This document shows positions 4,062 through 26,495 of a DNA stretch of 64,000 nt, piece by piece. The stretch lies in contig CAKOTK010000003.1 of the NCBI GenBank assembly GCA_934120135.1, positions 8,746-72,745 on the forward strand, written 5' to 3'. Numbering within the stretch: position 1 is the first letter of the stretch; the number at the start of each line of letters is the position of its first letter. The translations under genes were made by a program, and so were the position numbers. This DNA comes from an uncultured Clostridia bacterium. Its GTDB lineage: Bacteria; Bacillota; Clostridia; TANB77; CAG-508. The notes beneath the pieces were generated by a model, which did not search any database, was not told the origin of the DNA, and saw only the letters and a list, made by a program, of their open reading frames with translations.

Positions 4062-4122
4062 TGTATTGACATTTGTTAAAACTAAGACTATAATAGTAAT
4101 ATAGTGATAAAAGGAGAAAGTT

Positions 4123-4284
4123 ATGTTAGCTAAAACATGGAAAAAAATATTATTATTTGTTTTAATAATAGCATGTCTATTTAATATAGTAAATAAACTT
4201 GTTCATAAAGCGTCTATGAAGCAAGAAATAGAAGCTTCAGCAGAATATGTTGAACAACAACAAAAAGCAAATGAACAAAAATAA
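4123..4284 (+). CDS. 53-aa single-TM microprotein (below the ORF-track cutoff)
   Basis: 'aaaggag' SD 6 nt upstream of the ATG. Translation is MLAKTWKKILLFVLIIACLFNIV... with a hydrophobic helix. Hand-translated. Confidence 0.4.
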   Translation: MLAKTWKKILLFVLIIACLFNIVNKLVHKASMKQEIEASAEYVEQQQKANEQK

Positions 4285-6839: not shown

Positions 6840-6841
6840 AC

Positions 6842-9454
6842 ATGGCAGAATATTCACCTATGATGCAACATTATTTACAAACAAAAGAAGAATATAAAGA
6901 TTGCATTTTATTTTATCGTTTAGGCGATTTTTATGAAATGTTTTTTGATGATGCAATTACAGCTTCAAGAGAATTAGAGTTAACACTAACTGGCAAAGAC
7001 TGTGGACAAGCTGAAAGAGCTCCTATGTGTGGTATACCATATCATGCTGCAGAAACATATATTGCAAGGTTAATTGAAAAAGGATATAAGGTTGCAATTT
7101 GTGAGCAGCTTGAAGATCCTAAACAAGCAAAAGGAATTGTAAAAAGAGATGTTATAAGAGTCGTAACACCTGGTACTGTAATGGAAAGCAACCTTCTGGA
7201 AGAAAAGAAAAACAATTATATAATGTCAATATATAAAAATGGAATTTATTATGGAGTAGCAGTTTGTGACCTGACAACAGCAGATTTCAAAACTACACAA
7301 ATTAAAGACCAAAATAATTTTATTACATTAATGGATGAAATTTCGAGATTTTCACCGGCTGAAATTGTTGTAAATACTATGATGTATGAATCAGTACAAG
7401 AAATTAGTAAGATACGTGAAAGATTTAATATATACATATCAAAACTAGATGATGAAAAATTTAATACTGATTATAATGAATTTAAAATTAAATATGACAT
7501 ATTAAATGAAAATGAGCAAGAAGTTGAAGATATATCTGATAGTGTATTATGTGTTGCAGCAAGTAATGGATTATTAAATTATTTGAAAGATACTCAAAAA
7601 AGTAACTTAGACTATATTCATAAAATTGTGTTATATTATACAACACATTATATGAATTTAGATATAAATGCAAGAAGAAACTTGGAAATAACAGAAAAGT
7701 TAAGAGACAAAAGCAAAAAGGGGACTTTACTTTGGGTTCTTGATAAAACTTCAACATCAATGGGAGGAAGATTATTAAGAAGATGGCTTAACGATCCTTT
7801 AATAGATGTATGCAAGATAAATGAAAGACTAGAAGCTGTTAAAGAATTAAAAGAAGATATAATTTTAAGAGGAGATGTTATTGATAGCTTAAAGAAAGTG
7901 TATGATATTGAAAGATTAGCAGGAAAAATATCTTATGGTAGTGCAAATGCGAGAGATTTACTTTCATTAAAAAACTCTGCTAAACAATTACCTGATGTAA
8001 AGAAAACACTTTCACAAACAAAATCTCCATTATTAACTCAATTATATGATGACTTAGATACCTTAGAAGACGTTTATCAAATAATTGAAGACTCAATTAT
8101 TGACGATCCACCTATAAGTGTAAAAGAAGGTGGAATAATAAAATTAGGATATGACGAAGAAATAGATCACCTAAAAAAGGCAACAACAGAAGGCAAAAAT
8201 TGGGTTCTAGATATAGAAGCAAAAGAGAGAGAAGCAACAGGAATAAAGGGTTTAAAGGTTGGATTTAATAAAGTATTTGGATATTTTATTGAAGTAACAA
8301 AATCTAATTTATCAATGGTTCCAGATAGATTTATTCGTAAGCAAACTTTAGCAAACTGTGAAAGATATATAACAGAAGAACTAAAAAAAGTTGAAAATGA
8401 AATTTTAGGTGCAGAAGAAAAAGTTGTAAATCTAGAATATAATGCCTTTTGTGAAATAAGAGAAAAAATAGAGAAGCAAATATTAAGAGTTCAAAAATCA
8501 GCAAGTATCATAGCTACATTAGATGTTCTAACATCTTTAGCAACAGTGGCAGATGATATGAATTATGTTATGCCAATAGTTGATAATAGTGGAATGATAG
8601 ATATTAAAGATGGACGTCATCCTGTTATTGAAAAAATATTACCAGGTGGAAGCTTTGTTGAGAATGATACATATTTAGACAAAAATGATAACCGTTTAGC
8701 AATTATTACAGGACCTAACATGGCTGGTAAATCTACATATATGAGACAAGTTGCATTGATAACACTTATGGCACAAGTTGGAAGTTTTGTACCAGCATCC
8801 TATGCAAAAATTGGTGTAGTTGATAAAATATTCACTAGAGTTGGAGCATCTGATGATTTAAGTATGGGACAAAGTACTTTTATGGTTGAAATGATGGAAG
8901 TGGCAGCTATATTAAAGGAAGCTACATCAAATAGTTTAGTAATTTTAGATGAAATAGGAAGAGGAACTTCAACTTATGATGGACTTTCAATTGCATGGGC
9001 AGTAGCTGAATATATTTCAGATAAAGAAAAATGTGGAGCTAAAACTCTATTTGCAACACATTATCATGAGTTAACCTCACTGGAAGAAAAACTAGAAGGC
9101 GTTAAAAATTATTCTGTTGCTGTAAAAGAAAAGGGAGAAGATGTTATTTTCTTAAGAAAAATTGTACCAGGGGGAACTGATGAAAGTTACGGTGTACATG
9201 TTGCAAAATTAGCAGGAGTTCCTCAAGTGGTAACAAAACGTGCAAATGAAATTTTGAAAACTTTGGAAAGAAAAAGTGTACTCGGGGAAAAGGCACAAGA
9301 AAAAGAAAACAAAAAAGTTGCAACAGGACAATTAGATTTATATAATTATAAATTGGCTGAGATAGCTCACGAATTGGATAAAGTAGATTTAAATGAGCTA
9401 ACACCAATTGAGGCATTGAACACTTTAGTTAATATGAAAGAGAAAATGAAATAG
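6842..9454 (+). CDS. mutS: DNA mismatch repair protein MutS
   Basis: N-terminal 'PMMQHYLQTKEEYKDCILFYRLGDFYEMFFDDA', Walker A 'GPNMAGKST' and 'TLFATHYHELT'. Confidence 0.97.
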   Translation: MAEYSPMMQHYLQTKEEYKDCILFYRLGDFYEMFFDDAITASRELELTLTGKDCGQAERAPMCGIPYHAAETYIARLIEKGYKVAICEQLEDPKQAKGIVKRDVIRVVTPGTVMESNLLEEKKNNYIMSIYKNGIYYGVAVCDLTTADFKTTQIKDQNNFITLMDEISRFSPAEIVVNTMMYESVQEISKIRERFNIYISKLDDEKFNTDYNEFKIKYDILNENEQEVEDISDSVLCVAASNGLLNYLKDTQKSNLDYIHKIVLYYTTHYMNLDINARRNLEITEKLRDKSKKGTLLWVLDKTSTSMGGRLLRRWLNDPLIDVCKINERLEAVKELKEDIILRGDVIDSLKKVYDIERLAGKISYGSANARDLLSLKNSAKQLPDVKKTLSQTKSPLLTQLYDDLDTLEDVYQIIEDSIIDDPPISVKEGGIIKLGYDEEIDHLKKATTEGKNWVLDIEAKEREATGIKGLKVGFNKVFGYFIEVTKSNLSMVPDRFIRKQTLANCERYITEELKKVENEILGAEEKVVNLEYNAFCEIREKIEKQILRVQKSASIIATLDVLTSLATVADDMNYVMPIVDNSGMIDIKDGRHPVIEKILPGGSFVENDTYLDKNDNRLAIITGPNMAGKSTYMRQVALITLMAQVGSFVPASYAKIGVVDKIFTRVGASDDLSMGQSTFMVEMMEVAAILKEATSNSLVILDEIGRGTSTYDGLSIAWAVAEYISDKEKCGAKTLFATHYHELTSLEEKLEGVKNYSVAVKEKGEDVIFLRKIVPGGTDESYGVHVAKLAGVPQVVTKRANEILKTLERKSVLGEKAQEKENKKVATGQLDLYNYKLAEIAHELDKVDLNELTPIEALNTLVNMKEKMK

Positions 9455-12874: not shown

Positions 12875-15325
12875 TTAAACCTCTCTATATAAATTTCCAT
12901 TAGTATATTGTAATCCTTCTAATTTTTCTCTGTTATAAGCTTTGTCTACAGCTTCATTTATTTCATCAATACTCTCATCAAGTATATCAAGTCTAACAAA
13001 ATTTACAGGTAAGTCTTTAGTTGAAACTGAAAGAGTTTTACTATTACAAATCAATGTTACAGTTTCAATGCTATTTGGCACGACTCTGAAATTAAAGCCT
13101 AATCTGTCTTTTAAATAGTATTTATTATTCTTCTTGCAATTAGTTCCACAGTCTGGATAGCATTTATTAGTCTTGCCTAAAAAACAATAACTACTTGACA
13201 TAAGAGGCAGATTACCATATACAATCATTTCAGTATTGATATTAGCGTTAGCCAACATTTCTTTTATAAGCTCTTGATTAAGCTCTCTAGATAAAGTTAT
13301 TCGTGAAAGACCTAATTTTCTGTATTCTTCCATTGTATTATTATTGAACACATTAAGAGTATAATTTCCTATAAACTCATAATCTTTACTATATTTTTTT
13401 AATAGCTCAAAATCACCAATATTAGAAATTACAAAGCCTTTTATATTATAAACCATAATTGCTTGTTCTATTGTACTTAAAGCTATATTTTTATAATTTG
13501 TTTTTATTATACTTGGAACATATATGTATAAGTTATAATTATCACTAAAATATGAAATTACTTTAGAATATTTTTTACTAATAAATAATTCTAAAGATAC
13601 ATAAATATTAGTAATTTTTTCTTTGTCTAGTTTAGTATAATCAAAATCTAAATCCAATTGCCTAAACAAAACAGAAATTTCAGGATTTTTTACATTAGGT
13701 GTATATGTTATACTTTCCTTTGATTTTTTTGACAAGTCTAATAAAGTTCTCTTTGCTCTAGATAAAATTTCTTGTTCAACTTTTTCTAAGGCAGTTCTTC
13801 TTAATTCATTCAATGTACTAATACTCGGAACATAAAGTCCATCATCCAAAAGAACTGTGATGTTCTCAAAAGAAAATGGGGTATTAGTAGTTTTGGAAAT
13901 TTGTTTTACAACTCGCTCAACACTAATTGGTGTTTTTAGAGCATCAATAGGTATCATATTTGAAATTTCTTTAACATAAATACTTGAATAAAGTTCATTA
14001 TAGCAAGTATTTTTATTTGTAGAAATTTCCATACTAATAGGTGTATTCTTTTTGATTGTAACAGTACAATTTAAAGGTATTTTTTTATTTTCACAATTAT
14101 CATAAGATGCTTTAGCAAAATCGCTTAAAGTTTTACTAGAAATTCTGTAAACTTTATCTCCAACTTTGATATTGCCTTTCATACGTCCAATTGTAACTTC
14201 AGTATTAGCTGAAACTTTCTTTTGATTTACATTCTTAATCATAAGCTCTGATACTAAGTATTTAGAAGCTTCATTAGAAACAGAAACAGAGTCTCCGAGT
14301 TCTAAGTCTTCTTCTAGTTGCAAGGTAATATGACCTTTATTAGAATTGTATTTTTTTATAGTTCCTAAATAAATTCCCATATTACTTGGTTTTTCAGAAA
14401 ATATTAAGTTCCTATTATGTTTAGAATCTAAATGTCCATCTGAAAATCCACCTCTATTAAATACTTGCATTAAGTCATTTATATCTTTTTCGTCAATAAT
14501 AAAGTCATCATTATTTAATACCATATCAATATATCTTCTGTAAATTCTAGTAACAGTGGCAACATATTCCGGACTTTTCATACGACCTTCGATTTTAAAA
14601 CATTTGACACCAGCTTGTATTAAACGTGGGAGATAGGCAATACCACATAAATCTTTAGTACTTAATAAATAGCCTTTATCTATTGATTTACGCTCATGAG
14701 TCTCAGCATTTTCACTAATTAGTTCATAAGGTAACCTACAAGGACCAGCGCATTTACCACGGTTTCCTGAACGACCACCAACAATACTTGAAAATAAACA
14801 TTGACCTGAATAGCAAATACATAATGCACCATGAATAAAAGTTTCAATTTCAACTTTACAGTTTTTACAAATGTACTCAATTTCGTCACAAGAAAGTTCC
14901 CTTGAAAGAACTACTCTATCAAAACCAAGTTTTTCAAGCTTCAATACTCCTTGCAAGTTGTGTACTGTCATTTGAGTACTAGCGTGTATAGGTAACCCAG
15001 GAATATTATCGATTAGATATTTTGCCAAGCCTAAATCTTGAACAATTATTGCATCAACTCCTGCTTTATAAGCCTCTTTAGCCAAATCAACTGCATTATC
15101 AAATTCACAATTCTCAAGAAGAGTGTTTAAGGTTAAGTTCGTTTTTACATTCCTTAATTTACAATAATCTATAACTTGTTTCATATCTTCAATATTAAAA
15201 TTAGCTGCGTACATTCTAGCATTAAACTGTTCTACACCAAAATATACTGCGTCTGCACCGTTTTGCACAGCTGCTTTTAAACAATTCCAGTCTCCAACAG
15301 GAGCCAAGAGTTCTACTTTTGTCAT
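12875..15325 (-). CDS. peptidase U32 family protein (double-domain, collagenase/RlhA-like)
   Basis: 'VELLAPVGDWNCLKAAVQNGADAVYFG' is the U32 N-terminus. ATG 15325 is chosen because of the 'ggaggt' SD; the track start adds 21 implausible residues. Confidence 0.85.
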   Translation of the reverse strand: MTKVELLAPVGDWNCLKAAVQNGADAVYFGVEQFNARMYAANFNIEDMKQVIDYCKLRNVKTNLTLNTLLENCEFDNAVDLAKEAYKAGVDAIIVQDLGLAKYLIDNIPGLPIHASTQMTVHNLQGVLKLEKLGFDRVVLSRELSCDEIEYICKNCKVEIETFIHGALCICYSGQCLFSSIVGGRSGNRGKCAGPCRLPYELISENAETHERKSIDKGYLLSTKDLCGIAYLPRLIQAGVKCFKIEGRMKSPEYVATVTRIYRRYIDMVLNNDDFIIDEKDINDLMQVFNRGGFSDGHLDSKHNRNLIFSEKPSNMGIYLGTIKKYNSNKGHITLQLEEDLELGDSVSVSNEASKYLVSELMIKNVNQKKVSANTEVTIGRMKGNIKVGDKVYRISSKTLSDFAKASYDNCENKKIPLNCTVTIKKNTPISMEISTNKNTCYNELYSSIYVKEISNMIPIDALKTPISVERVVKQISKTTNTPFSFENITVLLDDGLYVPSISTLNELRRTALEKVEQEILSRAKRTLLDLSKKSKESITYTPNVKNPEISVLFRQLDLDFDYTKLDKEKITNIYVSLELFISKKYSKVISYFSDNYNLYIYVPSIIKTNYKNIALSTIEQAIMVYNIKGFVISNIGDFELLKKYSKDYEFIGNYTLNVFNNNTMEEYRKLGLSRITLSRELNQELIKEMLANANINTEMIVYGNLPLMSSSYCFLGKTNKCYPDCGTNCKKNNKYYLKDRLGFNFRVVPNSIETVTLICNSKTLSVSTKDLPVNFVRLDILDESIDEINEAVDKAYNREKLEGLQYTNGNLYREV

Positions 15326-15427
15326 ATAAATAATAACCTCCAAATAATTTAACCTTATTAATTGTAACACAATTTTTGTCTTTTGCATACTAATATTATA
15401 TAGAAAAGTAAAAAGGAGGAGATCAGT

Positions 15428-15583
15428 ATGCCAGAAGAATCTAGAGACTGTGGATGCGGCCGTAATAATGGTTGCGGTTGCTTAGGTAACTTATTTGGAG
15501 GTTGCGGATGTGGTGATAGTAGTATTTTATTCTTTATAATAATATTTTTATTACTATTTTGTAATTGCGGAGGCAACAGATAA
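15428..15583 (+). CDS. YjcZ-like tiny Cys/Gly-rich transmembrane (sporulation-type) microprotein, 51 aa
   Basis: 'aaaggagga' SD. Translation is MPEESRDCGCGRNNGCGCLGNLFGGCGCGDSSILFFIIIFLLLFCNCGGNR. A hairpin terminator follows at about 15594-15625. Below the ORF-track cutoff. Confidence 0.5.
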   Translation: MPEESRDCGCGRNNGCGCLGNLFGGCGCGDSSILFFIIIFLLLFCNCGGNR

Positions 15584-15700
15584 CAACATATTAAAGGCAG
15601 CATTTGACAAATGTTGCCTTTTTTCTATTTTATCTTGACGGAAAATATCAAGAATGATATACTAAGCTTGTAGAAATTTATCACTTTTTAGGAGGAAAAA

Positions 15701-17867
15701 ATGTTATTAAAAAACATTTTCAATATACGAAAAATAGTAAGTATCATTCTAATAATTTTAATATTATCAAGTTTAATTACACTATTTATAAATAACGAGG
15801 TAAAAGCTACATATAGTAGCAAGTTTTCAAATTATCCTCGGATACGAAAAACTATTAAAAGAATTACAAGAAGCTCATCCAAATTGGGAATTTGAAATAT
15901 TAGAAACCGGTTTGGATTGGTCAGAAGTAATTATTGCTGAATCTACAAGATATCACGGTAGAAATGTTGTACCATCAACAAGAGCAGATGCTTGGAAATG
16001 TGCTTGCAACAAAACTGTAGAAGATGTTTGGAAATGTGCTTCAACAGCAGCAGTAGCATATTATATGGATCCAAGAAATTCATTGAACGAAAATTATATA
16101 TTTCAATTTGAACAATTGACATATGACGAAAAAAATCAAACAAAAGAAGGAGTAGAACTTATACTTAAACCTTGTAATTATGCACAAGGTAAAGTTACAT
16201 ATTATGATTCAAAAGGCAACAAAAAGACGTTAGACAAAACTTATGTAGATGTAATAATGGAAGCTTCAAAAGAATACAATATAAGTCCATATCACTTGGC
16301 TTCTAGAATAAGACAAGAACAAGGAGCTGGAAATGCAGGTTCAATGATTTCTGGAACTTGGACAGGCGGTGACGGAAACTATAAAGGCTTATATAATTTC
16401 TTTAATATTTGTGCTTATGGAAAAAACATTGTACAAAACGGTTTAAAGTATGCTAAATCACAAGGATGGACAGATCCAGAGAAATCTATTAAAGGTGGAG
16501 CTAAAATATTAGCATCAGGATATATTTCAATAGGACAAGATACATTATATCTAGAGAAATTTGACGTTGTAAATGGTGGAGATGGATATTATTCACACCA
16601 ATATATGACAAATGTATCTGCTTCTAAAACTGAGGGATATACAATTCGTAATACATATACAAATATGGGATTATTATCATCAGAGTCTAAGATAAAATTT
16701 AAAATTCCAGTATATAAAAATATGCCTGAGCAAATATGTCCACAACCAGGAACAGAAAAACCTGTTACACAAGATGTTGAGATAACTGAAAATAACGTGA
16801 GAGTTAGAAAAGGCAAAGGAACTAACTATGATATAGTTACAACATTAAACAAAGGAACTAAAATTTTAAGAATTGAATTAGACAATTCTAAAACAGGGGG
16901 ATATTACTGGGATAAAGTTGTATTAGCAGACGGAACAAAAGGATATGTTGCAAGAAACTATTTGAAACAAATAGATTTACAAAGTAACTGCAATGAACAA
17001 TATATTACTACTAAATATACAGACTTTAGAAATGGTCCTGGCACATCAAAAACAACGGTTCTCAAAGTATTATCAGCAGGACAAATAGTAACAATTGTGG
17101 AAAAAGATAAATACAAAGCTTTAGATGACAATGACTGGTGTAGAATTAAATTAAGTGATGGAACTTATGGATATGTTACATCAAATAGTTTTGAAGCATA
17201 TGACCCTACTAAAGTTGACCAATTAAGAATAATCTGTACTGATGGACTAACTGTCAGAAAATCGCCAAGTACAAGTGCATCAGCACTAGCATCACTATAC
17301 AAAGGAGCTATAGTAACAAGAACAGAAAGAAATGTAGAAAGCACAAACAAAAACTATATATGGGATAAAATAATTACATCTAGTGGAATTACCGGATATA
17401 TAGCAACAAGAGATATAAAAAATAATGAAGACTGGGCTGAGGTTATAGGTTCGAACAATCCAACTGATACAACAACAGAAATAAAAGGTAATGGATTTAA
17501 GACGAGTGAAAATAATATTGTTTGTCAACCTAAAATTACAGTAAGCAATATAAAAGCTGTAGCAAAAGATGCAATTATCAAAAAAGGTAATACTGTAATA
17601 GAGGACACAGCAAATGTAGGTACAGGATATACATTAACATCAGACGGAAAAACATATACAATTGTAGTTTTAGGAGATGTTAATGGAGATGGAAAGGCTT
17701 CAGCAGGTGATTATGTATTAATCAAAAATCACATAATGCAAACTAACTTGATAAAGGATTCTGCAAACCAAAATGCAGCCGATGTAAATAAGGATGGTAA
17801 GATTTCAGCAGGTGACTATGTACTAATAAAAAACTATATAATGAAAGGTACTGAATTTTCACTATAA
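15701..17867 (+). pseudogene. secreted GH73-type glucosaminidase / 3x SH3b / C-terminal dockerin protein, interrupted by a +1 frame change
   Basis: The signal peptide (15701-15895) is in frame 2 and the enzyme body is in frame 0. Reading across 'cct c gga tac' gives ...SNYP|GYEKLLKELQEAHPNWEFEILETGLDWSEV. Other motifs: 'ISPYHLASRIRQEQG' (glucosaminidase) and 'DVNGDGKASAGDY'/'DVNKDGKISAGDY' (dockerin). Confidence 0.7.
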
Positions 17868-17888
17868 TTATAAAGGAGATTAAAACAA

Positions 17889-19181
17889 ATGAATAAGAAA
17901 ATATTAAAAATTAATTTATGTTTAATAATGTTATTTATATTTATATCTTGTACAACACAAGTTTTTGCTGCAGGAAGTTTTTCATTAAGCAAATCTAGTT
18001 CTAGTATAACAGAAGGCAAAACAGATAGCTTTACTATAAACGGAAGTAATGCAACAGGAAGAGTAGATATTACATCTTCTAATACAAGTGTTGCGACAGT
18101 TAGTTCAAGTAGCCAATGGCTTGAAAATAACTCTGCAACCGTAACTATAACAGCAAAAAAAGCTGGAACTGCAAAAATAACTGTGTCTGGTACAATAGCT
18201 GACAAAGATGGAAATGAGGCAACAGTTACTAAAACAATAAGTGTAACAGTAAAAGCTAAATCAACATCAAGTTCTAGTAACAATAATTCGAATTCAAACT
18301 CAAATTCAAATAGTGGAAGTACTAAAAAAGAACCTAAATTTACAAGTGTTAATCAAACAATGTATACAACAGGAGAAGTAAATATAAGAAAAAGCTATTC
18401 AACATCTAGTGCAATAATAAAAACAGTAGAAAAAGGAACTAAAATTACTAGAGTAGGAATAGGAGATAATGGTTGGAGTAAAATTACATATAATGGTCAA
18501 ACAGCCTACATTAGTAGTTCACTATTAACTAAAACTAAACCAGCTGAAGATAAACCAAAAACAGAAGAACCAAAAAGCAATACAACAACAAATCAAACTA
18601 CAAATAATGAAACAATAAACAACGAGAATACTAATAACATAACAGAACCTGTTAATAATGAAGTTGATAATTCTAACACAGACAATACAAATGCAATATT
18701 AGGACTATCTAAGTTAGAAATTGCAGGAGTAAACTTTTCAGAAGGATTTGACCCTTCAATACATTCATACACTTTAAAATTAAATTTCTTTGTAAAAGAC
18801 TTAAATATCACAGCAGAAGCTAATAAAACAGATGCTAAAGTTGAAATAATAGGAAATGAAAATTTTGAAGCAGGGGAGAATAATGTTACAATATTAGTTA
18901 GTTCAGCTGATAACAAAGAAACAGCAACATATCAAATAAAAGTAACAATACCATCAGAAGTAGCAAGTTCACCACAAAATAATATTCAATTTTATCTAAT
19001 GTGTGGAACTATTATATTAGCAGCAATTGTGGTAATTGGAATAATCATTTCAATATATAAAAAGAAAAATAAAAGTGAAGTAGATTATAAAGAGACCAAA
19101 ACAGATAATGATATGATAGACTCCTATACAGATATAAAACCTAAAAAAGAAAAAGTAAAAAGTGGTAAACACTCAAATTAA
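17889..19181 (+). CDS. membrane-anchored surface protein with Big_2-like, SH3b and cadherin-like beta-sandwich domains
   Basis: Signal peptide, 'ATVTITAKKAGTAKITV' (Ig-like), an SH3b segment, 'FDPSIHSYTLKL...TATYQIKVT' (cadherin-like) and a C-terminal TM helix. Confidence 0.7.
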   Translation: MNKKILKINLCLIMLFIFISCTTQVFAAGSFSLSKSSSSITEGKTDSFTINGSNATGRVDITSSNTSVATVSSSSQWLENNSATVTITAKKAGTAKITVSGTIADKDGNEATVTKTISVTVKAKSTSSSSNNNSNSNSNSNSGSTKKEPKFTSVNQTMYTTGEVNIRKSYSTSSAIIKTVEKGTKITRVGIGDNGWSKITYNGQTAYISSSLLTKTKPAEDKPKTEEPKSNTTTNQTTNNETINNENTNNITEPVNNEVDNSNTDNTNAILGLSKLEIAGVNFSEGFDPSIHSYTLKLNFFVKDLNITAEANKTDAKVEIIGNENFEAGENNVTILVSSADNKETATYQIKVTIPSEVASSPQNNIQFYLMCGTIILAAIVVIGIIISIYKKKNKSEVDYKETKTDNDMIDSYTDIKPKKEKVKSGKHSN

Positions 19182-19223
19182 AATATAATGTGGAAAAGAA
19201 ATTTTTCTTTTCCACAAAAATAT

Positions 19224-19299
19224 GCTGGTATAGCTCAGTTGGTAGAGCAACAGATTCGTAACCTGTAGGTCGGCGGTTCGATTCCGCCTACCAGCTCCA
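19224..19299 (+). tRNA. tRNA-Thr (anticodon CGU), CCA encoded
   Basis: Hand-folded cloverleaf: acceptor 'gctggta'/'taccagc', D-arm 'gctc...gagc', anticodon loop 'ttCGTaa', T-arm 'ggcgg ttcgatt ccgcc'. A terminator hairpin follows at about 19306-19338. Confidence 0.9.
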
Positions 19300-19384
19300 A
19301 ATCAAAAGAGAATGGATAGACATAATTTTCTAGCCATTCTCTTTTAATTAGATAAATTAACATATTATGGAACATCAACAAAGA

Positions 19385-19493
19385 TTGCAAAATTATGTAA
19401 ATAGTGATATAATAATTTTATTATTGTTCGTAGCTATGCGAACTATAATAAAATAGCCAAGTGGCAAATTCTCAAAAACAATTGTTAGGAGGA
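19385..19493 (+). promoter_or_regulatory. promoter + conserved 5' leader module, copy 1 (drives orphan A)
   Basis: 'ttgcaa'-17-'tataat', then a ~15-bp 5' hairpin, the palindrome 'aacaattgtt' and 'aggagg'. Near-identical to 25146-25252. Confidence 0.55.
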
Positions 19494-19500
19494 TTGAACT

Positions 19501-19863
19501 ATGCAAGTTGAGGATAAACTTCTTTGTCATTGGGATTTAGTACGGTTCGTTACAGAGGAACAATTACGCCAGAAAAATGGAAAGTTTTTCACTCTTTCTG
19601 TTTGCTGCACTAACAGTTTAGAACTTATGATTTATTTGAACAAACGTTGGTTCAGCTATGAAGTAAGAGTCTATAAAGATTTACCAAGTGATAAGTACGT
19701 TCCACATCAATATGACAATGTAAAGAGATTTAAAGAAAATGATGAATATGCAACATTTTTCTTTAAAAAGTTTGAACAAGCACGGAACTTTGTGGCATTG
19801 TTAGGCTATAGACATCCTGAGTACCGAGTAAGACCCACTAGAAAAATAGGCGAAGACACTTAA
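19501..19863 (+). CDS. orphan protein A (120 aa), GC-enriched, no recognisable family
   Basis: Strong SD, own promoter and own terminator (19908-19939). Codon usage (cag, ctg, cgg) is unlike the host's. Confidence 0.55.
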   Translation: MQVEDKLLCHWDLVRFVTEEQLRQKNGKFFTLSVCCTNSLELMIYLNKRWFSYEVRVYKDLPSDKYVPHQYDNVKRFKENDEYATFFFKKFEQARNFVALLGYRHPEYRVRPTRKIGEDT

Positions 19864-19934
19864 CTTGCAGTCAACTAGTTACGTTATTTTGTAACTGGTT
19901 AATCAATAAAAAGTCCTGTCAATAAAGACGGGAC

Positions 19935-20029
19935 TTTTTATGTGATAATATATAATTTCAAGACAATGTAAACTAAGCATTGTCTTTCTCGATTTTATAC
20001 ATTAATTTTGCGTATATGGGGGCAAAAAT
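19935..20029. repeat. 95-bp perfect direct repeat, copy 1 (contains a duplicated 3' end of the transporter gene)
   Basis: Letter-for-letter identical to 23736-23830 by eye. Confidence 0.9.
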
Positions 20030-20117
20030 TATAAAAATTGTTGACCTTTTACTGAAAATATTGTATAAATAATTTGAAATAGTTTTGCAATTAATCTAAA
20101 AATGAATGAGGAATTAT

Positions 20118-20918
20118 ATGAATAAAGAGAGTAATAAAAAGTTTAATAGCTTAATTAACTATATAGAGGAAAATCTTTGTGAAGAAATTAGTTATAAAAA
20201 GCTATCTCAAATACTAGGTGTTAATGAATATACATTACATAGAATATTTTTGTTTGTAACTAATTATACTTTAGCTGATTATATTCGAAAAAGAAGATTA
20301 AGTATGGCTGCTTTAGAGTTACTTGAAGAAAAGGAAAAAATAATTGATATTGCAATAAAATATAATTATGAATCTTCACAGGCTTTTTCTAGAGCTTTTA
20401 AATCTATGATGGGATTTACCCCAAGTGAAATAAAAAACAATAGAAATAATATAAAATTCTTTTCACAATATGAATTGATAGATAATGAAGAAACAACAGA
20501 TGAGTTTCATTATCATATAGAAAAGAATGTAAAATTCAACCTATATGCTATTTTCAAAAAGACAACAATAAAAAATTGTCATAATGAAGCGCCAATATTT
20601 TGGAAAGAAAATTACAAATATATAAAAGGAAAGCCTGAATATGGACTGCTTGAATATGATAAAACTTGTAGTACAGATGAGGCGATTTATTATATAGCGT
20701 CTACAGAAAAATTTGAAAATGCAACAGAGTTAGATCTAAAACCCAGTAATTATTTAATATTCGAATATGACTATATAAATTCCACTTATTTATATGAATT
20801 TTGTAAAAAAATTTACAGAACAATTATTCCTAGCTCTGGATATGAATTAGAAGATTTACCGGATATTGAAGAATATTTACCAAACAATAAGTTGAAATTA
20901 TATATTCCTATAAAGTAA
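20118..20918 (+). CDS. AraC-family transcriptional regulator with GyrI-like effector domain
   Basis: The HTH 'YTLADYIRKRRLSMAALEL...GYESSQAFSRAFKSMMGFTPSE' is typical AraC. The C-terminal half is GyrI-like. Confidence 0.8.
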   Translation: MNKESNKKFNSLINYIEENLCEEISYKKLSQILGVNEYTLHRIFLFVTNYTLADYIRKRRLSMAALELLEEKEKIIDIAIKYNYESSQAFSRAFKSMMGFTPSEIKNNRNNIKFFSQYELIDNEETTDEFHYHIEKNVKFNLYAIFKKTTIKNCHNEAPIFWKENYKYIKGKPEYGLLEYDKTCSTDEAIYYIASTEKFENATELDLKPSNYLIFEYDYINSTYLYEFCKKIYRTIIPSSGYELEDLPDIEEYLPNNKLKLYIPIK

Positions 20919-21023
20919 AATAATTAAGTAACTTTTTTGATATTAAAAAGGTTACTTGATTTGTTTTTTTTAGAGTTACAATGTATAATATAAACTTATT
21001 TGAATTTGATAGGAGGATATGAG

Positions 21024-22007
21024 ATGAATGAATATTTAACTCGTGAAATCTGGAAAATGCGGAGGAATATTAGAACAGAAAAAGGGAACCCTAAAGTTTC
21101 ACTTGTCAACGTAGAAGGAAGAATTTATCAATTACTTTTTCTTTCATGTGGATGCGAAAATGCCTGTACGTTTTGCAACTACGGTTTTGATTACGCTCTT
21201 ACCTTAGAAACGGTTCTGCCCGAACTTGAGAAAATAAAATTTGAGGGTTTAGACATATTTGAGCTGGAACTCGAAGCCAACGGTTCTTTTCTTTCAGAGA
21301 GAGAAATTCCTTATAACTTGTTTATTGCAATACTGCAATTTATAGCAAAGAAAGATATTCCCACAATAACAATAGAAACTCATTATAATACGATCACTGA
21401 AAGAAAACTTCAAGACATTAGACAAATACTTGGAGATGAGCAAAGAATACAAATTGAAATGGGATTAGAATCAGCAGATGAAGATGTTAGAAGAATCTAT
21501 AATAAGGACATTGATATTGATGGGTATCTTGAAACAGTTAAATTATGCGAAAAATATAGAATTGGCCTTCAGATCAATGTTCTATTAGGTGCTCCATTTT
21601 TAACTCGTCAGGAACAAATTCAAGATTGCTTAGATTCTCTTGATTTTATTTACCAAAAAATGCCAGAAGGAACATATGCAGTCTTATTCCCAATAAACAT
21701 TAAGAAAAACACAATGTTACAACACTGGCAAGACATTGGTGTTTATGACCAAATTTCGTCGTGGGAATTAGTGGAACTTTTGCATAATATTCCGGAGGAA
21801 TATTTAGATAAGTTCACAATTGCCTGGTGGGGAAATAGAGAGAATACTTTTACAAAAGGCATTATTCAGTATCCGAAAACATGTGATAAATGTAGAGATA
21901 GACTAATGAGATTCTACAGTGATTTTTATTGTAATTGGGATCCTATTTACAGAAAAAGAATACTTGATGAAATATGGAAAACAAGATGTGAATGTGATAG
22001 AAATTAG
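21024..22007 (+). CDS. radical SAM protein (possibly COG1244/TIGR01210-like), GC-enriched
   Basis: 'CENACTFC' is a CX3CX2C motif. 'aggagg' SD. A bidirectional terminator lies at 22022-22049. Confidence 0.7.
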   Translation: MNEYLTREIWKMRRNIRTEKGNPKVSLVNVEGRIYQLLFLSCGCENACTFCNYGFDYALTLETVLPELEKIKFEGLDIFELELEANGSFLSEREIPYNLFIAILQFIAKKDIPTITIETHYNTITERKLQDIRQILGDEQRIQIEMGLESADEDVRRIYNKDIDIDGYLETVKLCEKYRIGLQINVLLGAPFLTRQEQIQDCLDSLDFIYQKMPEGTYAVLFPINIKKNTMLQHWQDIGVYDQISSWELVELLHNIPEEYLDKFTIAWWGNRENTFTKGIIQYPKTCDKCRDRLMRFYSDFYCNWDPIYRKRILDEIWKTRCECDRN

Positions 22008-22056
22008 TCTTCCACAAGTATAAAGCAGGTAGTAATTACTACCTGCTTTGTACTTA

Positions 22057-22608
22057 TTAACTTAGTAATAAATCTTTTAAATCTTTTTTTATCTTAGGTG
22101 GATAATTATATACTGGATATCCAATAATAAACCCACATATTTGTTCAAAATTATCTATCTTGAGATATTCATTAATTTGGTCTTCTATATATAAAGTATC
22201 ACATAAAATACAACTACCCAAACCTAAATTTACAGCTTGTAGACTCATATTCTCTATAGCACAACCTAAGGATATATAATCTGGTTTCTTGTAATTTTCA
22301 TTTTTTGATTTAGACTTATAACTATCAGTATAAATCATTATCATTTTATTAGCTGTACGTATCTGCTCTGCTGAACCTTTTACGCTAGTTTTCTCTTTAG
22401 GATTCAATCTATCCCATTCAAAAAGCATATTCATAATATCATTTTTTTGAGTATCACTTAAAATATAAAATTTCCAAGGTTGCCTATTTCTTGCAGAAGG
22501 TGCTAGACTTCCACTTAATAAAATCTTTTCCAACTGTTTTTTAGAAACATAATCATTTGTGAACAATCTAGCAGAACGCCTATTATCAACTATTTCATCA
22601 AAATTCAT
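22057..22608 (-). CDS. nitroreductase family protein
   Basis: 'RRSARLFT...SLAPSARNRQPWKFY' is the classic nitroreductase N-terminal motif. Confidence 0.8.
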   Translation of the reverse strand: MNFDEIVDNRRSARLFTNDYVSKKQLEKILLSGSLAPSARNRQPWKFYILSDTQKNDIMNMLFEWDRLNPKEKTSVKGSAEQIRTANKMIMIYTDSYKSKSKNENYKKPDYISLGCAIENMSLQAVNLGLGSCILCDTLYIEDQINEYLKIDNFEQICGFIIGYPVYNYPPKIKKDLKDLLLS

Positions 22609-22704
22609 ATCAATACCTCATAAAAAATATTTTATAAGATTTGTAATAACAAAGAGTAATTTTATTGATATTAATTTTGTTTATATAAATTAATCAAAAA
22701 TTTA

Positions 22705-22908
22705 CTATGGTTTAATTATACTATCTAAATTAGGATTATGAATTTCTTCCCAAATTCCTAAAAACTCAATAGTATTTCTGTTTCTTAACCAATCTGAAAC
22801 AAAAAAATCACCATCTTTAGACTTTAACATATCAGTAATAGATATATAATCCTCGTTTTCGATTTTTATATATGATATTTTTTGATCTAAAACACTTAAT
22901 TCTGCCAT
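22705..22908 (-). pseudogene. truncated KilA-N domain protein fragment (67 aa)
   Basis: 'YISITDMLKSKDGDFFVSDWLRNRNTIEFLGIWEEIHNPN' resembles KilA-N N-termini, which are normally about 250 aa. It stops abruptly. Confidence 0.55.
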
Positions 22909-22988
22909 ATTTTAACCTCCTCTTTCAAATAATTCAGCGATTATTTTAAACATTATATCAAACAAACGAAAAAATATTTACCATAAAA

Positions 22989-23017
22989 TTTGCAATATTA
23001 TGTAAAATATAGTATAA
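22989..23017 (+). promoter_or_regulatory. sigma-A type promoter for orphan B
   Basis: 'ttgcaa'-17-'tataat'. The spacer 'tattatgtaaaatatag' resembles the A/C module promoter. Confidence 0.5.
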
Positions 23018-23090
23018 TAAAAAAGTATTATCGAAAAGATACAATCTGAAACAGGAAATCTAACGTTTGAACATTTAAGGAGGGCAAATT

Positions 23091-23666
23091 ATGAGTTACG
23101 ATTCACAGTTAGAAGGTATGTTAGCAGTGGCTATTGCTATGGGGTCTAGAAATGCAGCCAAAGGACTCGAAACGGTTCAGAATGATGAACAGAGCAGAGT
23201 AAAAAATTCAAGCAGACTGCCTCGAGATATGAGTCCGAATCAGGCAACTTTTGAAGCACTTGGATTTACTTTCACTGATATTGGTGATAATGTTCTGTTT
23301 GAAGCAACTTTACCTGAAGGGTGGTCAACCCTAGAAACTCCTGGCTCAAGTATTTTATGGGAAAACTTGGTTGACGATAAAGGGCGCGTACGTGGTAATT
23401 ACTGCTATAAAGGAGCATTCTATGATCGATCTGGTCATATGAGTCTGTTTTGCAGGTATCACGCAACCTATCAGCATACTGATCCTGATAACTATGACAG
23501 TCCCATAAATGTTGTTGTTACAGACGCAGATGGTTCTGTTATCTTTAATGCTGGTCAGTGCCAAAAAGTTTATTCAAAAGACTATGATAAGCTTGTAGCA
23601 AAAACTGAGGAGTACCTTAAGTCTAACTATCCTGAGTGGGAAGATGTTACGAAATACTGGGACTAA
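23091..23666 (+). CDS. orphan protein B (191 aa), GC-enriched, no recognisable family
   Basis: 'ttaaggaggg' SD, own promoter and a strong terminator at 23696-23741. Confidence 0.6.
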   Translation: MSYDSQLEGMLAVAIAMGSRNAAKGLETVQNDEQSRVKNSSRLPRDMSPNQATFEALGFTFTDIGDNVLFEATLPEGWSTLETPGSSILWENLVDDKGRVRGNYCYKGAFYDRSGHMSLFCRYHATYQHTDPDNYDSPINVVVTDADGSVIFNAGQCQKVYSKDYDKLVAKTEEYLKSNYPEWEDVTKYWD

Positions 23667-23735
23667 CTAGTCTCTCCTTGTAACCTTTCTATCTAAAAAC
23701 TACCACCACCAATTGAAAAACTGGTGGTGGTTAGT

Positions 23736-23830
23736 TTTTTATGTGATAATATATAATTTCAAGACAATGTAAACTAAGCATTGTCTTTCTCGATTTTATA
23801 CATTAATTTTGCGTATATGGGGGCAAAAAT
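23736..23830. repeat. 95-bp perfect direct repeat, copy 2 (overlaps the genuine 3' end of the transporter gene)
   Basis: Identical to 19935-20029. Positions 23774-23830 encode ...IFAPIYAKLMYKIEKDNA* on the minus strand. Confidence 0.9.
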
Positions 23831-25000
23831 AGCAACAACTACAAGTAAAACTTTAAATATAATTAGGTTATTAAATATTCCTGCAATTAGCATTAGAAGG
23901 TATCCTAAAACTCTACCAATTGCTATGTATATTTCTACAAACGCCAAATATTCTATTTTCCATTTTTCTATATTACATTCATTTACTAAATTGCCTTTTT
24001 TAGTATTATAAATTACATTTAGAATTACTATAGTAACAGTATATAAAAAGTTATATATTATTAGAGTAGTTTTATTAATATCAAATATTAATCCTATAAC
24101 ACTGATTAATATCAATGATGCACAGGAGTATAAAACAAACTTTGAATTTTTTGAAGTATAATATTTTTTATATAAGTATAATGACAGCATTGAACACAAA
24201 TAGAATATACTTGTTAATACTCCGAGATTAAGAGATGTTTTAAATGTCATAATAGTTATTATTACCACCAAAGTTCCTGTTGAGCTTTCAACAACACCAA
24301 AAGCAACCATTGATTTTACAAATGTCTTTATTTTGGTTTTAGATTCTTTATCTAAACTTTTTATAAAGTTACTAATACTATATTTCTCAATTTTTTCGTT
24401 TTTGAATTTAACATCGTTTGTAATCTTTAAAGATGCTATAATTTGAATCAATGATATTACGAAAACATATATTGCTATTTTACTAAATGAAGATAGCTCT
24501 ATTGAAGCACCTAAAATAATAGGAACGATTATTTCTATTATTCTACTAAAAATTGTTTCCAAAGAATTGTAATCTTTTCTATTTGCATTTGTTGTCACAT
24601 TGATTAAAAGTATTTCATGTGCCGTCCAATAAAAAGCTTCAGCAATTGCATATAAAATTGCAATTAAAGGAAAATATGTAGCTATTTTTTCCTTTAGTAC
24701 TACAATAAGTAGAATAAATAGTGCTCTTAAAAATGTTCCAAAGGATAAGAGCTTTGTCATATGTTGAGGATTATTCTTTACAAAATTTCCAAGTAATAAG
24801 CTTACTAGGCAAAGCAAAGAATATATAATCATATAAAATATAGAAACTTGAACTATACTCTCATTAGTTATTTCTAGAAAATATGCAACTAGAAAAGTAT
24901 TTACAAATATTCCGGTTGTTGAATACATTAAATCACAAATTAGTAAAAATTTAGAGTCTTTGCTAAATTTATTTTTACCTACTAACTTTAAATTTTCCAT
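23774..25000 (-). CDS. MFS-type polytopic membrane transporter
   Basis: About 12 predicted TM helices. ATG 25000 has an 'aaggtg' SD. Confidence 0.65.
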   Translation of the reverse strand: MENLKLVGKNKFSKDSKFLLICDLMYSTTGIFVNTFLVAYFLEITNESIVQVSIFYMIIYSLLCLVSLLLGNFVKNNPQHMTKLLSFGTFLRALFILLIVVLKEKIATYFPLIAILYAIAEAFYWTAHEILLINVTTNANRKDYNSLETIFSRIIEIIVPIILGASIELSSFSKIAIYVFVISLIQIIASLKITNDVKFKNEKIEKYSISNFIKSLDKESKTKIKTFVKSMVAFGVVESSTGTLVVIITIMTFKTSLNLGVLTSIFYLCSMLSLYLYKKYYTSKNSKFVLYSCASLILISVIGLIFDINKTTLIIYNFLYTVTIVILNVIYNTKKGNLVNECNIEKWKIEYLAFVEIYIAIGRVLGYLLMLIAGIFNNLIIFKVLLVVVAIFAPIYAKLMYKIEKDNA

Positions 25001-25145
25001 TTTTATCACCTTTTATTTACTATATATCGAATTTGAATATGACAAAATTATACTATAATTAACATATTTTTCATATACTTTTTGTAGAGAAATTAACAAT
25101 ATTATGGAACGGCAATAATGAAAAATGGCAACATATTAACAGCTG

Positions 25146-25252
25146 TTGCAAAATTATGTAAATAATGATATAATAGTTCATATTATTCGTAGCTATGCGA
25201 ACTATAATAAAATAGCCAAGTGGCAAATTCTCAAAAACAATTGTTAGGAGGA
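25146..25252 (+). promoter_or_regulatory. promoter + conserved 5' leader module, copy 2 (drives DUF1737-like ORF)
   Basis: Same 'ttgcaaaattatgtaaata.tgatataat', hairpin, 'aacaattgtt' and 'aggagg' as 19385-19493. Confidence 0.55.
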
Positions 25253-25258
25253 TGAAAA

Positions 25259-25426
25259 ATGCAGTACCAAGTTGTTATTGACAAGGCTTTAATACTACCT
25301 GCCGCAGTAGAAAGACTGGAGATGAATGTGCAAAAAATGTGCGATGAAGGTTGGCAACCTCAGGGAAGTATCTATATATTCAACGATGGAAAATATATTT
25401 GTGTCTGTCAGGCAATGGTAAAATAA
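25259..25426 (+). CDS. DUF1737-like small protein (55 aa), GC-enriched
   Basis: Hand-translated as MQYQVVIDKALILPAAVERLEMNVQKMCDEGWQPQGSIYIFNDGKYICVCQAMVK. SD lies 7 nt upstream and a terminator at about 25441-25480. Below the ORF-track cutoff. Confidence 0.5.
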   Translation: MQYQVVIDKALILPAAVERLEMNVQKMCDEGWQPQGSIYIFNDGKYICVCQAMVK

Positions 25427-25589
25427 CTGCAAAATGAAAAAAGAGAAGGTATAGAAAATTATTTCTATATCTTCTCTTTTTGTAGAGAAATTAACATATT
25501 ATGAAGCCGTGAAAAGTAATAAAAGGTTGCCATTTTTTGCAAATTATGGTACAATATAAAAGGATTTAAACAAAAGAGAGGTTGATTTT

Positions 25590-26495
25590 ATGGGATTTTT
25601 TGATAAATTAAAAAATGGTTTGAGTAAAACCAAAAATTCATTTGATGAAAAGATAAATAATGTATTTAGTAATTTTAGAAAAGTAGATGAAGAACTTTTA
25701 GAAGAATTAGAAGAAGCTCTAATAATGTCAGATGTAGGAGCACAAACATCTACGAAAATTATTTCTAATTTAAGAGATAGAATAAAAAAAGAGAAAATTG
25801 AAAATGAAGAAGATGTAAGAAATGCACTAAGAGAAGAAATAAAAGCTATTTTAGATGAAGTTGATAATGGTTTAAAATTAGCAACTCATCCTTCTGTTAT
25901 TTTAGTAGTAGGAGTAAATGGAGTTGGCAAAACCACTTCTATAGGTAAAATAGCTAATCGTTTAAAACAAGATGGTAAAAAGGTAGTAATTGCTGCAGCA
26001 GATACATTTAGAGCAGCAGCAGTAGAACAATTAGAAATATGGGCTAACAGAGCCAGTTGCGATATAGTAAAAAAAGAAGAAGGTACAGACCCTGCGTCAG
26101 TTGTTTTTGATGCAATTCAAATAACTAAACAAAAGAATGCAGATGTTTTGATATGTGATACAGCTGGAAGATTACACAATAAAAAATATTTGATGGACGA
26201 GCTTGTAAAAATAAAAAAGGTAATAGATAAAGAACTACCAGAAAGTTCAAAAGAAGTTTTGATGGTTCTTGATGCAACAACAGGGCAAAATGCTATTTCA
26301 CAAGTAAAAGCATTTAAAGAAACAGTTGATATAAATGGTTTGATATTAACTAAACTAGATGGAACAGCTAAAGGTGGAGTTGTAGTTGGCATAGTTGCAG
26401 AAAATCAAATGCCAGTTAAATTTGTTGGTGTAGGCGAACAAATTGACGATATGGAAATTTTTAATAGTACAGACTTTGTAAATGCTTTAATTTAA
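25590..26495 (+). CDS. ftsY: signal recognition particle receptor FtsY
   Basis: 'VILVVGVNGVGKTTSIGKIA', 'DTAGRLHNK' and 'LTKLDGTAKGG' are the SRP GTPase motifs. Confidence 0.95.
   Translation: MGFFDKLKNGLSKTKNSFDEKINNVFSNFRKVDEELLEELEEALIMSDVGAQTSTKIISNLRDRIKKEKIENEEDVRNALREEIKAILDEVDNGLKLATHPSVILVVGVNGVGKTTSIGKIANRLKQDGKKVVIAAADTFRAAAVEQLEIWANRASCDIVKKEEGTDPASVVFDAIQITKQKNADVLICDTAGRLHNKKYLMDELVKIKKVIDKELPESSKEVLMVLDATTGQNAISQVKAFKETVDINGLILTKLDGTAKGGVVVGIVAENQMPVKFVGVGEQIDDMEIFNSTDFVNALI

Follow-up and report, generated by a model that had tools for sequence, protein, structure and literature searches.

This report concerns a promoter-plus-leader unit of about 110 nucleotides (nt), referred to below as the module, that occurs twice in a 64,000-nt stretch of contig CAKOTK010000003.1 from an uncultured Clostridia bacterium. 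The whole stretch is called the window, its GC content is about 28%, and positions are counted from its first letter. Both copies lie in an inserted island (19302..25517) between tRNA-Thr(CGT) and ftsY, and each precedes one small open reading frame (ORF), referred to as cargo. The tRNA gene (19224..19299, forward strand; ARAGORN; Rfam tRNA, 70.6 bits) forms the left boundary of an integration hotspot with its 3' end. The right boundary is the host promoter of ftsY (25527..25555, forward strand; TTGCCA, 17 nt, TG-n-TACAAT), the gene itself starting at 25590. The island is defined by comparison with a conspecific empty site, L055, in which the CCA of tRNA-Thr is followed directly by AAATGGTAACCAATAAAAGGTTGCCATTTTTTGC and ftsY, with an identical ftsY promoter; the window departs from L055 after 19301 and rejoins it at AATAAAAGGTTGCC (25518).

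An initial annotation of the window, made from the sequence alone, had described two nearly identical copies of the module, and the alignment bears this out: 19385-19500 and 25146-25258 are identical in 107 of 116 columns of a global alignment and have in common a 40-nt core, TTCGTAGCTATGCGAACTATAATAAAATAGCCAAGTGGCA, for which the chance expectation is 0.00. The likeness ends a few bases 3' of the Shine-Dalgarno (SD) sequence. Copy 1 begins with its promoter (19385..19413, forward strand) and ends with the SD AGGAGG at 19487-19492. Copy 2 (25146..25258, forward strand) has its promoter at 25146-25174, its hairpin core at 25186-25201, a palindrome at 25236-25245, and its SD at 25246-25251. In both copies the SD lies 7-8 nt 5' of the ATG. 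The leader element GCCAAGTGGC is present as first described, and the palindrome AACAATTGTT (19477-19486 in copy 1) does abut AGGAGG in both places.

The promoter that had been proposed ahead of the leader was also found in both copies (TTGCAA, 17 nt, TG-n-TATAAT), which by consensus match fit a sigma-A (sigma-70 type) promoter with an extended -10 element. A consensus scan gave 10/12 matches plus the TG for copy 1, and the sequence is conserved across about 21 module versions. The whole region contains 41 promoter-like sites against 43.4 expected; because there is no excess of such sites, support for the promoter comes from its conservation across loci. By these consensus matches, the module would drive ORF120 and ORF55, the two cargo ORFs. 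A third promoter, which the initial annotation gave to a third cassette and called clearly related, lies at 22990..23018 (forward strand) 5' of ORF191 (23091-23666; 40.5% GC). The relationship of the promoters stands, with 23 of 29 positions in common including the spacer ATTATGTAAA, but the kinship is limited to the hexamers and spacer; the module leader is absent (nhmmer E = 0.21, promoter part only). A cmscan of 19000-26000 against Rfam 15 (E <= 5) found nothing overlapping 19385-19500 or 25146-25258, the tRNA being the sole significant match.

The coding sequences that follow the two copies are unrelated (BLASTP E = 1.4), as had been claimed. ORF120 (19501..19863, forward strand) is an orphan that has no Pfam match and only ten clusters of homologues. 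Its AlphaFold2 model has a mean confidence (pLDDT) of 69, and the best match in the PDB (E = 0.1, generic alpha/beta folds) is uninformative. The cassette ends in a terminator, read from the sequence as GTCCTGTC-aataaa-GACGGGAC followed by a T run (19913..19939, forward strand); homology between the ORF120 cassettes of the window and contig L006 extends through it. ORF55 (25259..25426, forward strand) had been called DUF1737-like, a description that is too strong: the match scores 18.3 bits against a Pfam cut-off of 24 (E = 0.002), and the homologues of ORF55 form only 4 clusters, all of them without a precomputed Pfam domain. Its terminator (25442-25482) and a short motif (25488-25503) form the right end of the cassette (25442..25503, forward strand). 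Both ORFs are richer in GC than the host, in agreement with the first description: ORF120 has 34.4% and ORF55 38.1% GC, compared with 26-30% in host genes, and GC at third codon positions is 30% and 36% compared with 11-12% in flanking host genes. Each cassette has its own predicted promoter, a single ORF, its own terminator, and a distinct base composition within the 34-40% ORF GC range, the features of moron-type cassettes.

The module is widely distributed. Counting copies in other genomes and listing what lies downstream, a check suggested in the initial annotation, yielded three metagenome-assembled genomes (MAGs), 22 metagenome contigs, and one viral-collection contig. The MAGs, labelled Clostridia, 'Bacilli', and Clostridium sp., came from an exact-pattern scan of species-representative genomes. 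The metagenome scan was anchored on TTATGTAAA and AACAATTGTTAGGAGG only, and 21 of its 22 contigs also have the hairpin TTCGTAGCTATGCGAA (or a form with 1-2 substitutions) and the mid-leader, neither of which the search demanded. A profile search found a full copy on viral-collection contig L026, adjoining a prophage end. Among viral contigs, a scan for CTCAAAAACAATTGTTAGGAGG gave 0 matches, and a scan for the 16-mer hairpin gave 7, of which 6 were chance or unrelated and L026 was the sole real module. The consensus module had no BLASTN match in plasmid and phage collections. As a unit, the promoter plus leader matches nothing described in the resources searched (Rfam and the plasmid and phage collections).

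The cargo is diverse. About 21 distinct module versions precede 13 ORF families, no pair of which scores below E = 0.3 in BLASTP. Pfam domains occur in 3 of the 13 families (LRV/HEAT, SIS, and WG-repeat) and have no theme in common. In all 26 instances the cargo is richer in GC than the module (33-44% versus 22-29%). The spacer ATTATGTAAA recurs in most module copies, L026 and L072 being exceptions. It had been foreseen that the module might prove to occur only twice, in a duplication that includes coding sequence. A simple local segmental duplication without wider meaning would be in keeping with the 5.7 kilobases (kb) between the copies in one island and with a perfect 95-nt repeat, D1, in the same island. 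However, the likeness stops at the SD, the coding sequences are unrelated, and dozens of unrelated contigs, as well as other taxa, also have the module, so this explanation is refuted. The main interpretation in the initial annotation, a portable expression module placed before the foreign ORFs of a cassette family, is upheld by the number of versions and of GC-richer families. Neither recombination machinery nor ends belonging to the cassettes themselves are evident.

Longer contigs place the module on mobile elements. In intact elements it lies 14-30 nt 3' of the stop codon of a gene for a product of about 100 amino acids (aa) (…KYKLVMFAMAKLMEME…LYLFN..*), next to a Mob_Pre (MobV) relaxase; in the longer contigs this small gene is downstream of the relaxase gene. 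The carrier elements encode either a large serine recombinase or a tyrosine integrase and Xis-like protein (the latter pair at L029), and often OLD/AAA_15 or AAA_2 ATPases. Mob_Pre is present at L036 and L040, and Resolvase/Recombinase and TnpV at L061. One element (L030/L036) has two module copies with different cargo. The carriers are integrative mobilizable elements (IMEs) as that term is used by Guedon et al. (2017, PMC5704250).

Solitary cassettes, including both in the window, are without the small gene. In four contexts a cassette with a 126-aa ORF shows homology that starts at the -35 box and stops at the terminator. In L043, a relic of the last codons of the small gene survives between a tRNA gene and the module of a solitary cassette, and because of this relic the solitary cassettes look like leftover pieces of IMEs. 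They look like pieces of MobV-type IMEs in particular, moved and reshuffled through homologous recombination and through the integration of elements at tRNA genes. At L035 (5600-8360), three copies of a version of the 'KYKLVMFAMAKLMEME' gene of about 70-80 aa alternate with two cargo genes for lipoproteins and one module, an arrangement that resembles tandem accretion or duplication of small-gene-plus-cargo units.

With moderate confidence, we favor the interpretation that the module is the standard expression unit of a family of IMEs, with a MobV/Mob_Pre relaxase and a serine or tyrosine recombinase, in gut Clostridia. Among the eight ORFs of the window island there is neither an integrase nor a relaxase, so the island itself does not qualify as an IME. 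It is not inside a prophage; phage structural or lysogeny genes were not found in it, save a 67-aa KilA-N fragment. The island is a decayed, accreted remnant at an integration hotspot. IMEs and related cis-mobilizable elements (CIMEs) integrate at tRNA 3' ends, decay to remnants without integrase or relaxase, and accrete in tandem (Guedon et al. 2017, PMC5704250). The same pattern is seen at the tRNA-Thr hotspot of the window and at L061, and a shared promoter/leader module or a role as recombination anchor is not described in the portions of that review used for this comparison.

The hotspot is polymorphic among strains. Thousands of gut-metagenome contigs with the label 'Clostridia bacterium' encode FtsY proteins 98-100% identical to that of the window, and a sample of these contigs was compared. 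L053 and most strains sampled (L053-L058 and L062, at about 7250-7930) have at this site a cassette with a GC-rich 136-aa orphan ORF. Its promoter and leader differ in sequence from those of the module but have the same build: an extended -10, a 5' hairpin (GAUGaAACG...CGUUaCAUC), and a palindrome, GTGCAAATGCAC, abutting AAGGAGG. L004 has ORF55 only. L006 has a variant of ORF120 where KilA-N and ORF191 stand in the window, behind a third leader version that is 23 nt shorter. L059 has genes for AraC, a radical-SAM protein, and a nitroreductase, then the module and ORF55; its nitroreductase gene (6836-7386) is split by a frameshift or stop into ORFs of 125 and 58 aa, which suggests decay of island genes. 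At L061 (1000-7280), a Tn4451-like element with a GCTCCA repeat occupies the 3' end of tRNA-Thr. It encodes a 612-aa serine recombinase (Resolvase/Recombinase), TnpV, a NikA-like protein, an alpha/beta hydrolase, and a SMODS nucleotidyltransferase; the last of these suggests defense cargo of the CBASS (cyclic-oligonucleotide-based antiphage signaling system) type.

Within the window, the direct repeat D1 has its copy 1 at 19935..20029 and its copy 2 at 23736-23830. Copy 2 takes in the final 18 codons of a major facilitator superfamily (MFS) gene (23774-25009, minus strand) together with the hairpin that follows them, so that copy 1 is a relic of the MFS 3' end. The pattern fits a Campbell-type insertion, by D1 recombination, of a 3.8-kb block with the AraC, radical-SAM, nitroreductase, KilA-N, and ORF191 genes. 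The 67-aa ORF (22705-22908, minus strand) matches only the N-terminal half of KilA-N, its L003 version has 77 aa, and it is probably the remnant of a truncated phage or element gene.

Copies of the module also act as crossover points, and hybrid modules occur. Read in the downstream direction, L004 changes from copy-1 to copy-2 sequence at a junction inside the promoter, and the intervening 5.7 kb, the whole island, is missing. L059 and L073 join an L006-type promoter to a window-type leader, and L050 has the copy-1 leader ahead of a variant of ORF55. The identities of leader and coding sequence are discordant: between the window and L047, ORF120 is 66% identical and its leader 94%; between the window and L006, ORF120 is 94% identical and its leader 65%; and between L043 and L044, the coding sequence is 84% identical (75% at third positions) and the leader 99%. 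In addition, ORF120 homologues stand behind at least three leader types, among them a second leader family (type B, described below). Therefore, module and cargo assort independently. Judged from these junction sequences, the exchange seen is homologous and occurs at variable points within the module. Because the module is near-identical wherever it is found, its copies double as portable homology, with crossovers between them deleting, inserting, and re-pairing cargo.

It could instead be supposed that the cassettes are themselves mobile, with site-specific recombination, resembling that of integron cassettes, at the module or at direct repeats of about 70 nt made up of a terminator plus AAATTAACATATTATG. 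Such repeats, in diverged form, bracket the ORF55 cassette in both L004 and the window, cassettes adjoin tRNA genes in four settings (the window, L043, L049, and L074), and one and the same cassette is present in different genomes. However, the repeat is missing from the empty site, the 126-aa cassettes lack such flanks and their homology ends at the -35 box and terminator, the island has no integrase, and the junctions observed are those of homologous crossovers whose position within the module varies. Adjacency to tRNA genes is accounted for by element integration, as at L061 (see also PMC5704250). We therefore regard self-mobile cassettes as very unlikely.

The flanking motif, which the initial annotation had read as an upstream end shared by both module copies, is indeed present 5' of both, as AAATTAACATATTATGGAAC at 19354-19373 and as AAATTAACAATATTATGGAAC at 25090..25110 (forward strand; upstream of copy 2). 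But it occurs a third time, at 25488-25503 after ORF55, and in each place it follows a terminator-like hairpin. The first hairpin (19307-19346) and motif together (19307..19373, forward strand) align as a diverged copy of the ORF55-cassette 3' flank. In L074-L077 (about 3700-4260), from another genome, an ORF55 that is 84% identical lies directly after a pair of tRNA genes and has the same terminator and motif downstream; because they follow ORF55 there too, the motif belongs to the 3' flank of ORF55-type cassettes. These ORF55 copies keep only the 3' half of the leader, the promoter and hairpin being lost. The motif is absent from the empty site L055 and from the flanks of the 126-aa cassettes. 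The copies 5' of the modules are more probably what remains of neighboring cassettes than a family-wide recombination end. By eye, the motif and the 3' end of the small gene of about 100 aa are alike at 15 of 23 positions, which is suggestive only. At L076 (1825-2800), an element with a phage-type integrase is inserted at the 3' end of the tRNA that flanks this ORF55.

The leader RNA is predicted to form small helices. In copy 1, a 5' hairpin (19416..19453, forward strand) consists of a core, UUCGUA-GCUA-UGCGAA (19427-19442), and an A/U stem that is complete only in this copy; the whole leader folds at -25.2 kcal/mol (z = -4.4). The long hairpin that had been described for both copies thus holds for copy 1, while copy 2 keeps the 6-base-pair (bp) core alone (z = -1.1). 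In most module versions, the flanking 'variable' bases GUUAU/AUAAU lengthen the stem towards the predicted start. The core pairs are retained in 19-20 of 20 leaders, with wobble-compatible changes (U-G to U-A and A-U to G-U), and L049 has a different hairpin, CGCGCAAAUUUGCG, in the same position. Farther 3', a putative anti-SD helix, AUUCUC:GAGGAU (19467..19495, forward strand; 95% of cells paired), surrounds the palindrome and takes in the SD. It has 5-6 bp, (U/A)UCUC with GAGG(A/U), and a single covarying pair (UA in 12 sequences and AU in 4). The analysis of folding and covariation, which the initial annotation had recommended, is divided in its outcome: 89% of cells pair in the proposed structure, compared with at most 61% in a control with the partners slid, but both-sided changes are found in 2 pairs only (5 cells), probably within one clade. 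The core changes, the exchanged hairpin in L049, and the covarying anti-SD pair agree with an RNA structure. The covariation itself is too thin to serve as proof of one.

For the palindrome, the initial annotation had offered two roles, operator or translational control element. Three of the four copies found without requiring it each bear a different single substitution (AACAATTATT, AACGATTGTT, and AACAAGTGTT). It is not conserved as a palindrome, and the idea of a strict dyad operator is therefore weakened. The short anti-SD helix beside it, with its one covarying pair, would better suit a translational element.

These features bear on the possibility that the leader is regulated, acting as a cis-regulatory address for a trans-acting factor so that all cargo is coregulated, for example, after transfer or under stress. 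Candidates for the factor would be the product of the neighboring gene of about 100 aa, a host repressor at the palindrome or spacer, or an RNA-binding protein or small RNA (sRNA) at the hairpin and SD. The hairpin and 3' leader sequences are kept beyond the needs of pairing (leaders are 94-99% identical where coding sequences are 66-84% identical), the spacer ATTATGTAAA is common to the third window promoter and most module copies, the small gene is always directly upstream in intact elements, and the anti-SD helix could act as a switch. However, the palindrome is substituted as noted, the small gene is missing from solitary cassettes, both window ones included, there is neither an alternative terminator/antiterminator fold nor a U-tract after the hairpin, no Rfam family matches, and L026 and L072 lack the spacer motif. 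On balance, such regulation is unlikely. A bolder form of the idea, in which a factor of the element or the host reads the hairpin and SD-proximal sequence as an address tag, coordinating cargo (perhaps for defense or anti-defense), for example, after transfer, while the invariant stretch of about 110 bp also serves as a docking site for homologous cargo exchange, is somewhat harder still to credit; if true, it would make the module a recombinase-free functional analogue of the integron platform.

More specific regulatory devices were considered and rejected. A riboswitch or attenuator does not fit, as the leader folds into three independent small helices, none followed by a U-tract, and no alternative fold. 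A 6-codon mini-ORF (ATG CGA ACT ATA ATA AAA TAG) begins in the 3' arm of the hairpin (19437-19457 and 25196-25216). It has no SD 5' of it and its length varies across module versions, and attenuation through a leader peptide was set aside. Comparison of the leader by eye with the CodY, Rex, and cre consensus motifs gave no convincing match.

A further alternative is that the module is a single-stranded DNA (ssDNA) element of the transferred strand, such as a single-strand origin (sso), an Frpo-like ssDNA promoter, or a MobV origin of transfer (oriT). The module sits on MobV-type mobilizable elements and is a repeated noncoding element before cargo genes, as in plasmid leading regions, and the hairpin loop region TAGCTA resembles the CS-6 sequence of ssoA, TAGCGT. 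However, ssDNA of copy 2 shows no significant fold on either strand (z = +0.45 and +0.73), with the -35 and -10 boxes unpaired and outside the hairpin, on which grounds an Frpo- or ssoA-type element was rejected. Moreover, the module in every case points towards an ORF and has an SD at its end, lies downstream, not upstream, of the mob gene, and persists in islands without a relaxase. An ssDNA function is extremely improbable.

If the module is the standard expression unit of an IME family, it would act as follows. A strong housekeeping-type promoter (TTGCAA or TTGAAA, 17 nt, TG-n-TATAAT) would start transcription 5-9 nt 3' of the -10 box, placing the hairpin UUCGUA-GCUA-UGCGAA, usually lengthened towards the likely start, at or near the 5' end of the mRNA, which it most plausibly shields. 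An A-rich spacer would lead to the helix of 5-6 bp in which UUCUC pairs with GAGGA of the consensus SD, 7-8 nt before the ATG, and which would mask the SD mildly. Unrelated, GC-richer cargo ORFs, each with its own terminator, would be joined just 3' of the SD to give a moron-type cassette that runs from promoter to terminator. In the window, the ORF120 and ORF55 cassettes would have survived in a decayed, accreted tRNA-Thr/ftsY island that has lost integrase and relaxase. What the sequences show directly is the wide distribution, the diversity of cargo, the setting on elements, the polymorphism of the hotspot, and the hybrid modules. From them we infer that the promoter is transcribed, that the hairpin stabilizes the mRNA, and that the anti-SD helix modulates translation.

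Several points weigh against this account. The start site, strength, and constitutive nature of the promoter are likewise deduced. The persistence of ORF55 in L074-L077 without the 5' half of the leader means that this half is not indispensable. The support from covariation is minimal, and the hairpin and 3' leader are conserved in sequence beyond what structure alone would explain, which could equally reflect recognition by a protein or RNA. Gene conversion between copies may account for the high identity of leaders as much as purifying selection does. Finally, TTATGTAAA and AACAATTGTTAGGAGG owe part of their conservation among the metagenome contigs to ascertainment, since the search pattern required both.

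Known systems offer partial parallels. Morons are autonomous promoter-ORF-terminator units of prophages and other mobile elements, a concept due to Juhala and Hendrix. Like the module cassettes, they have their own promoter and terminator, an ORF of deviant base composition, a position at element ends or hotspots, and cargo of mostly undefined function. In contrast to morons, one near-identical promoter plus leader here serves at least 13 unrelated ORFs on different elements and in different taxa, and the carriers are MobV-type IMEs and tRNA-adjacent islands, not phage late regions. The integron platform (Pc promoter and attI) similarly combines conserved expression signals with interchangeable, unrelated ORFs and a cassette content that varies among strains. 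However, no IntI was found among the island ORFs, each cassette here has its own copy of promoter and leader, and exchange is by homologous crossover inside the module and not by site-specific recombination. The 3' elements of the cassettes are ordinary terminators plus the short motif (missing from the 126-aa cassettes) and not evident attC sites, although no attC model was run.

Stem-loops in the ermC and aprE leaders, the STAB-SD of cryIIIA, and the stabilizer of phage SP82 protect the 5' ends of mRNAs in Gram-positive bacteria. They share with the module a stem-loop at or near the (predicted) 5' end and a very strong SD. There is no sequence similarity, and the putative hairpin of the module is conserved beyond purely structural need. 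Frpo and ssi elements are leading-region ssDNA promoters before anti-defense genes on conjugative plasmids. The likeness here lies in a repeated, conserved noncoding element before diverse small accessory ORFs on transferable elements; the module differs in being an ordinary duplex -35/-10 promoter without a long ssDNA hairpin.

The module is best read as a conserved expression unit of MobV-type mobilizable elements that is reused for many unrelated foreign ORFs and kept in relic cassettes at tRNA-linked hotspots, its copies acting as recombination anchors. It belongs with morons and with conserved expression platforms for exchangeable cargo. As a searchable signature of about 110 nt, it flags accessory cargo on mobilizable elements of abundant uncultured gut Clostridia, and it yields at least 13 orphan families as candidates for defense, anti-defense, or colonization roles. 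Natural strain variants show a conserved regulatory module doubling as portable homology that reshuffles cargo at a tRNA-linked hotspot. If its promoter, 5' hairpin, and SD are as strong as their consensus implies, the module would also offer an off-the-shelf part for gene expression in low-GC Clostridia.

A second promoter-plus-leader family, type B, has the form TTGAC(T/A)TTTTATGTTA..TGTGATATATT ... CCTGTTTT(T)(G)CAGG ... TTTTAAGGAGG. It stands at L063 95-264 and 2007-2176 before two different 122-aa ORFs on one contig, and a related form precedes other ORF120 homologues at L068-L070. Since type B is common to different ORFs, shared leader modules are not unique to the module of the window. 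At L060 (7797-7902, minus strand), a distant version of the module with the promoter TTATGTAAAGTATGATATAAT and a different hairpin, UUCGGAGG-CACAGU-CCUUCGAA, followed by CAATTATAAGGAGG, precedes a small membrane ORF at the tRNA-Thr/ftsY hotspot and presumably drives it. Directly 5' of tRNA-Thr, in all strains sampled, lie two large secreted proteins (15000-19181 in the window) with SH3_3, dockerin, and cadherin-like domains, within which tandem dockerin-type repeats occupy 17676-17846.

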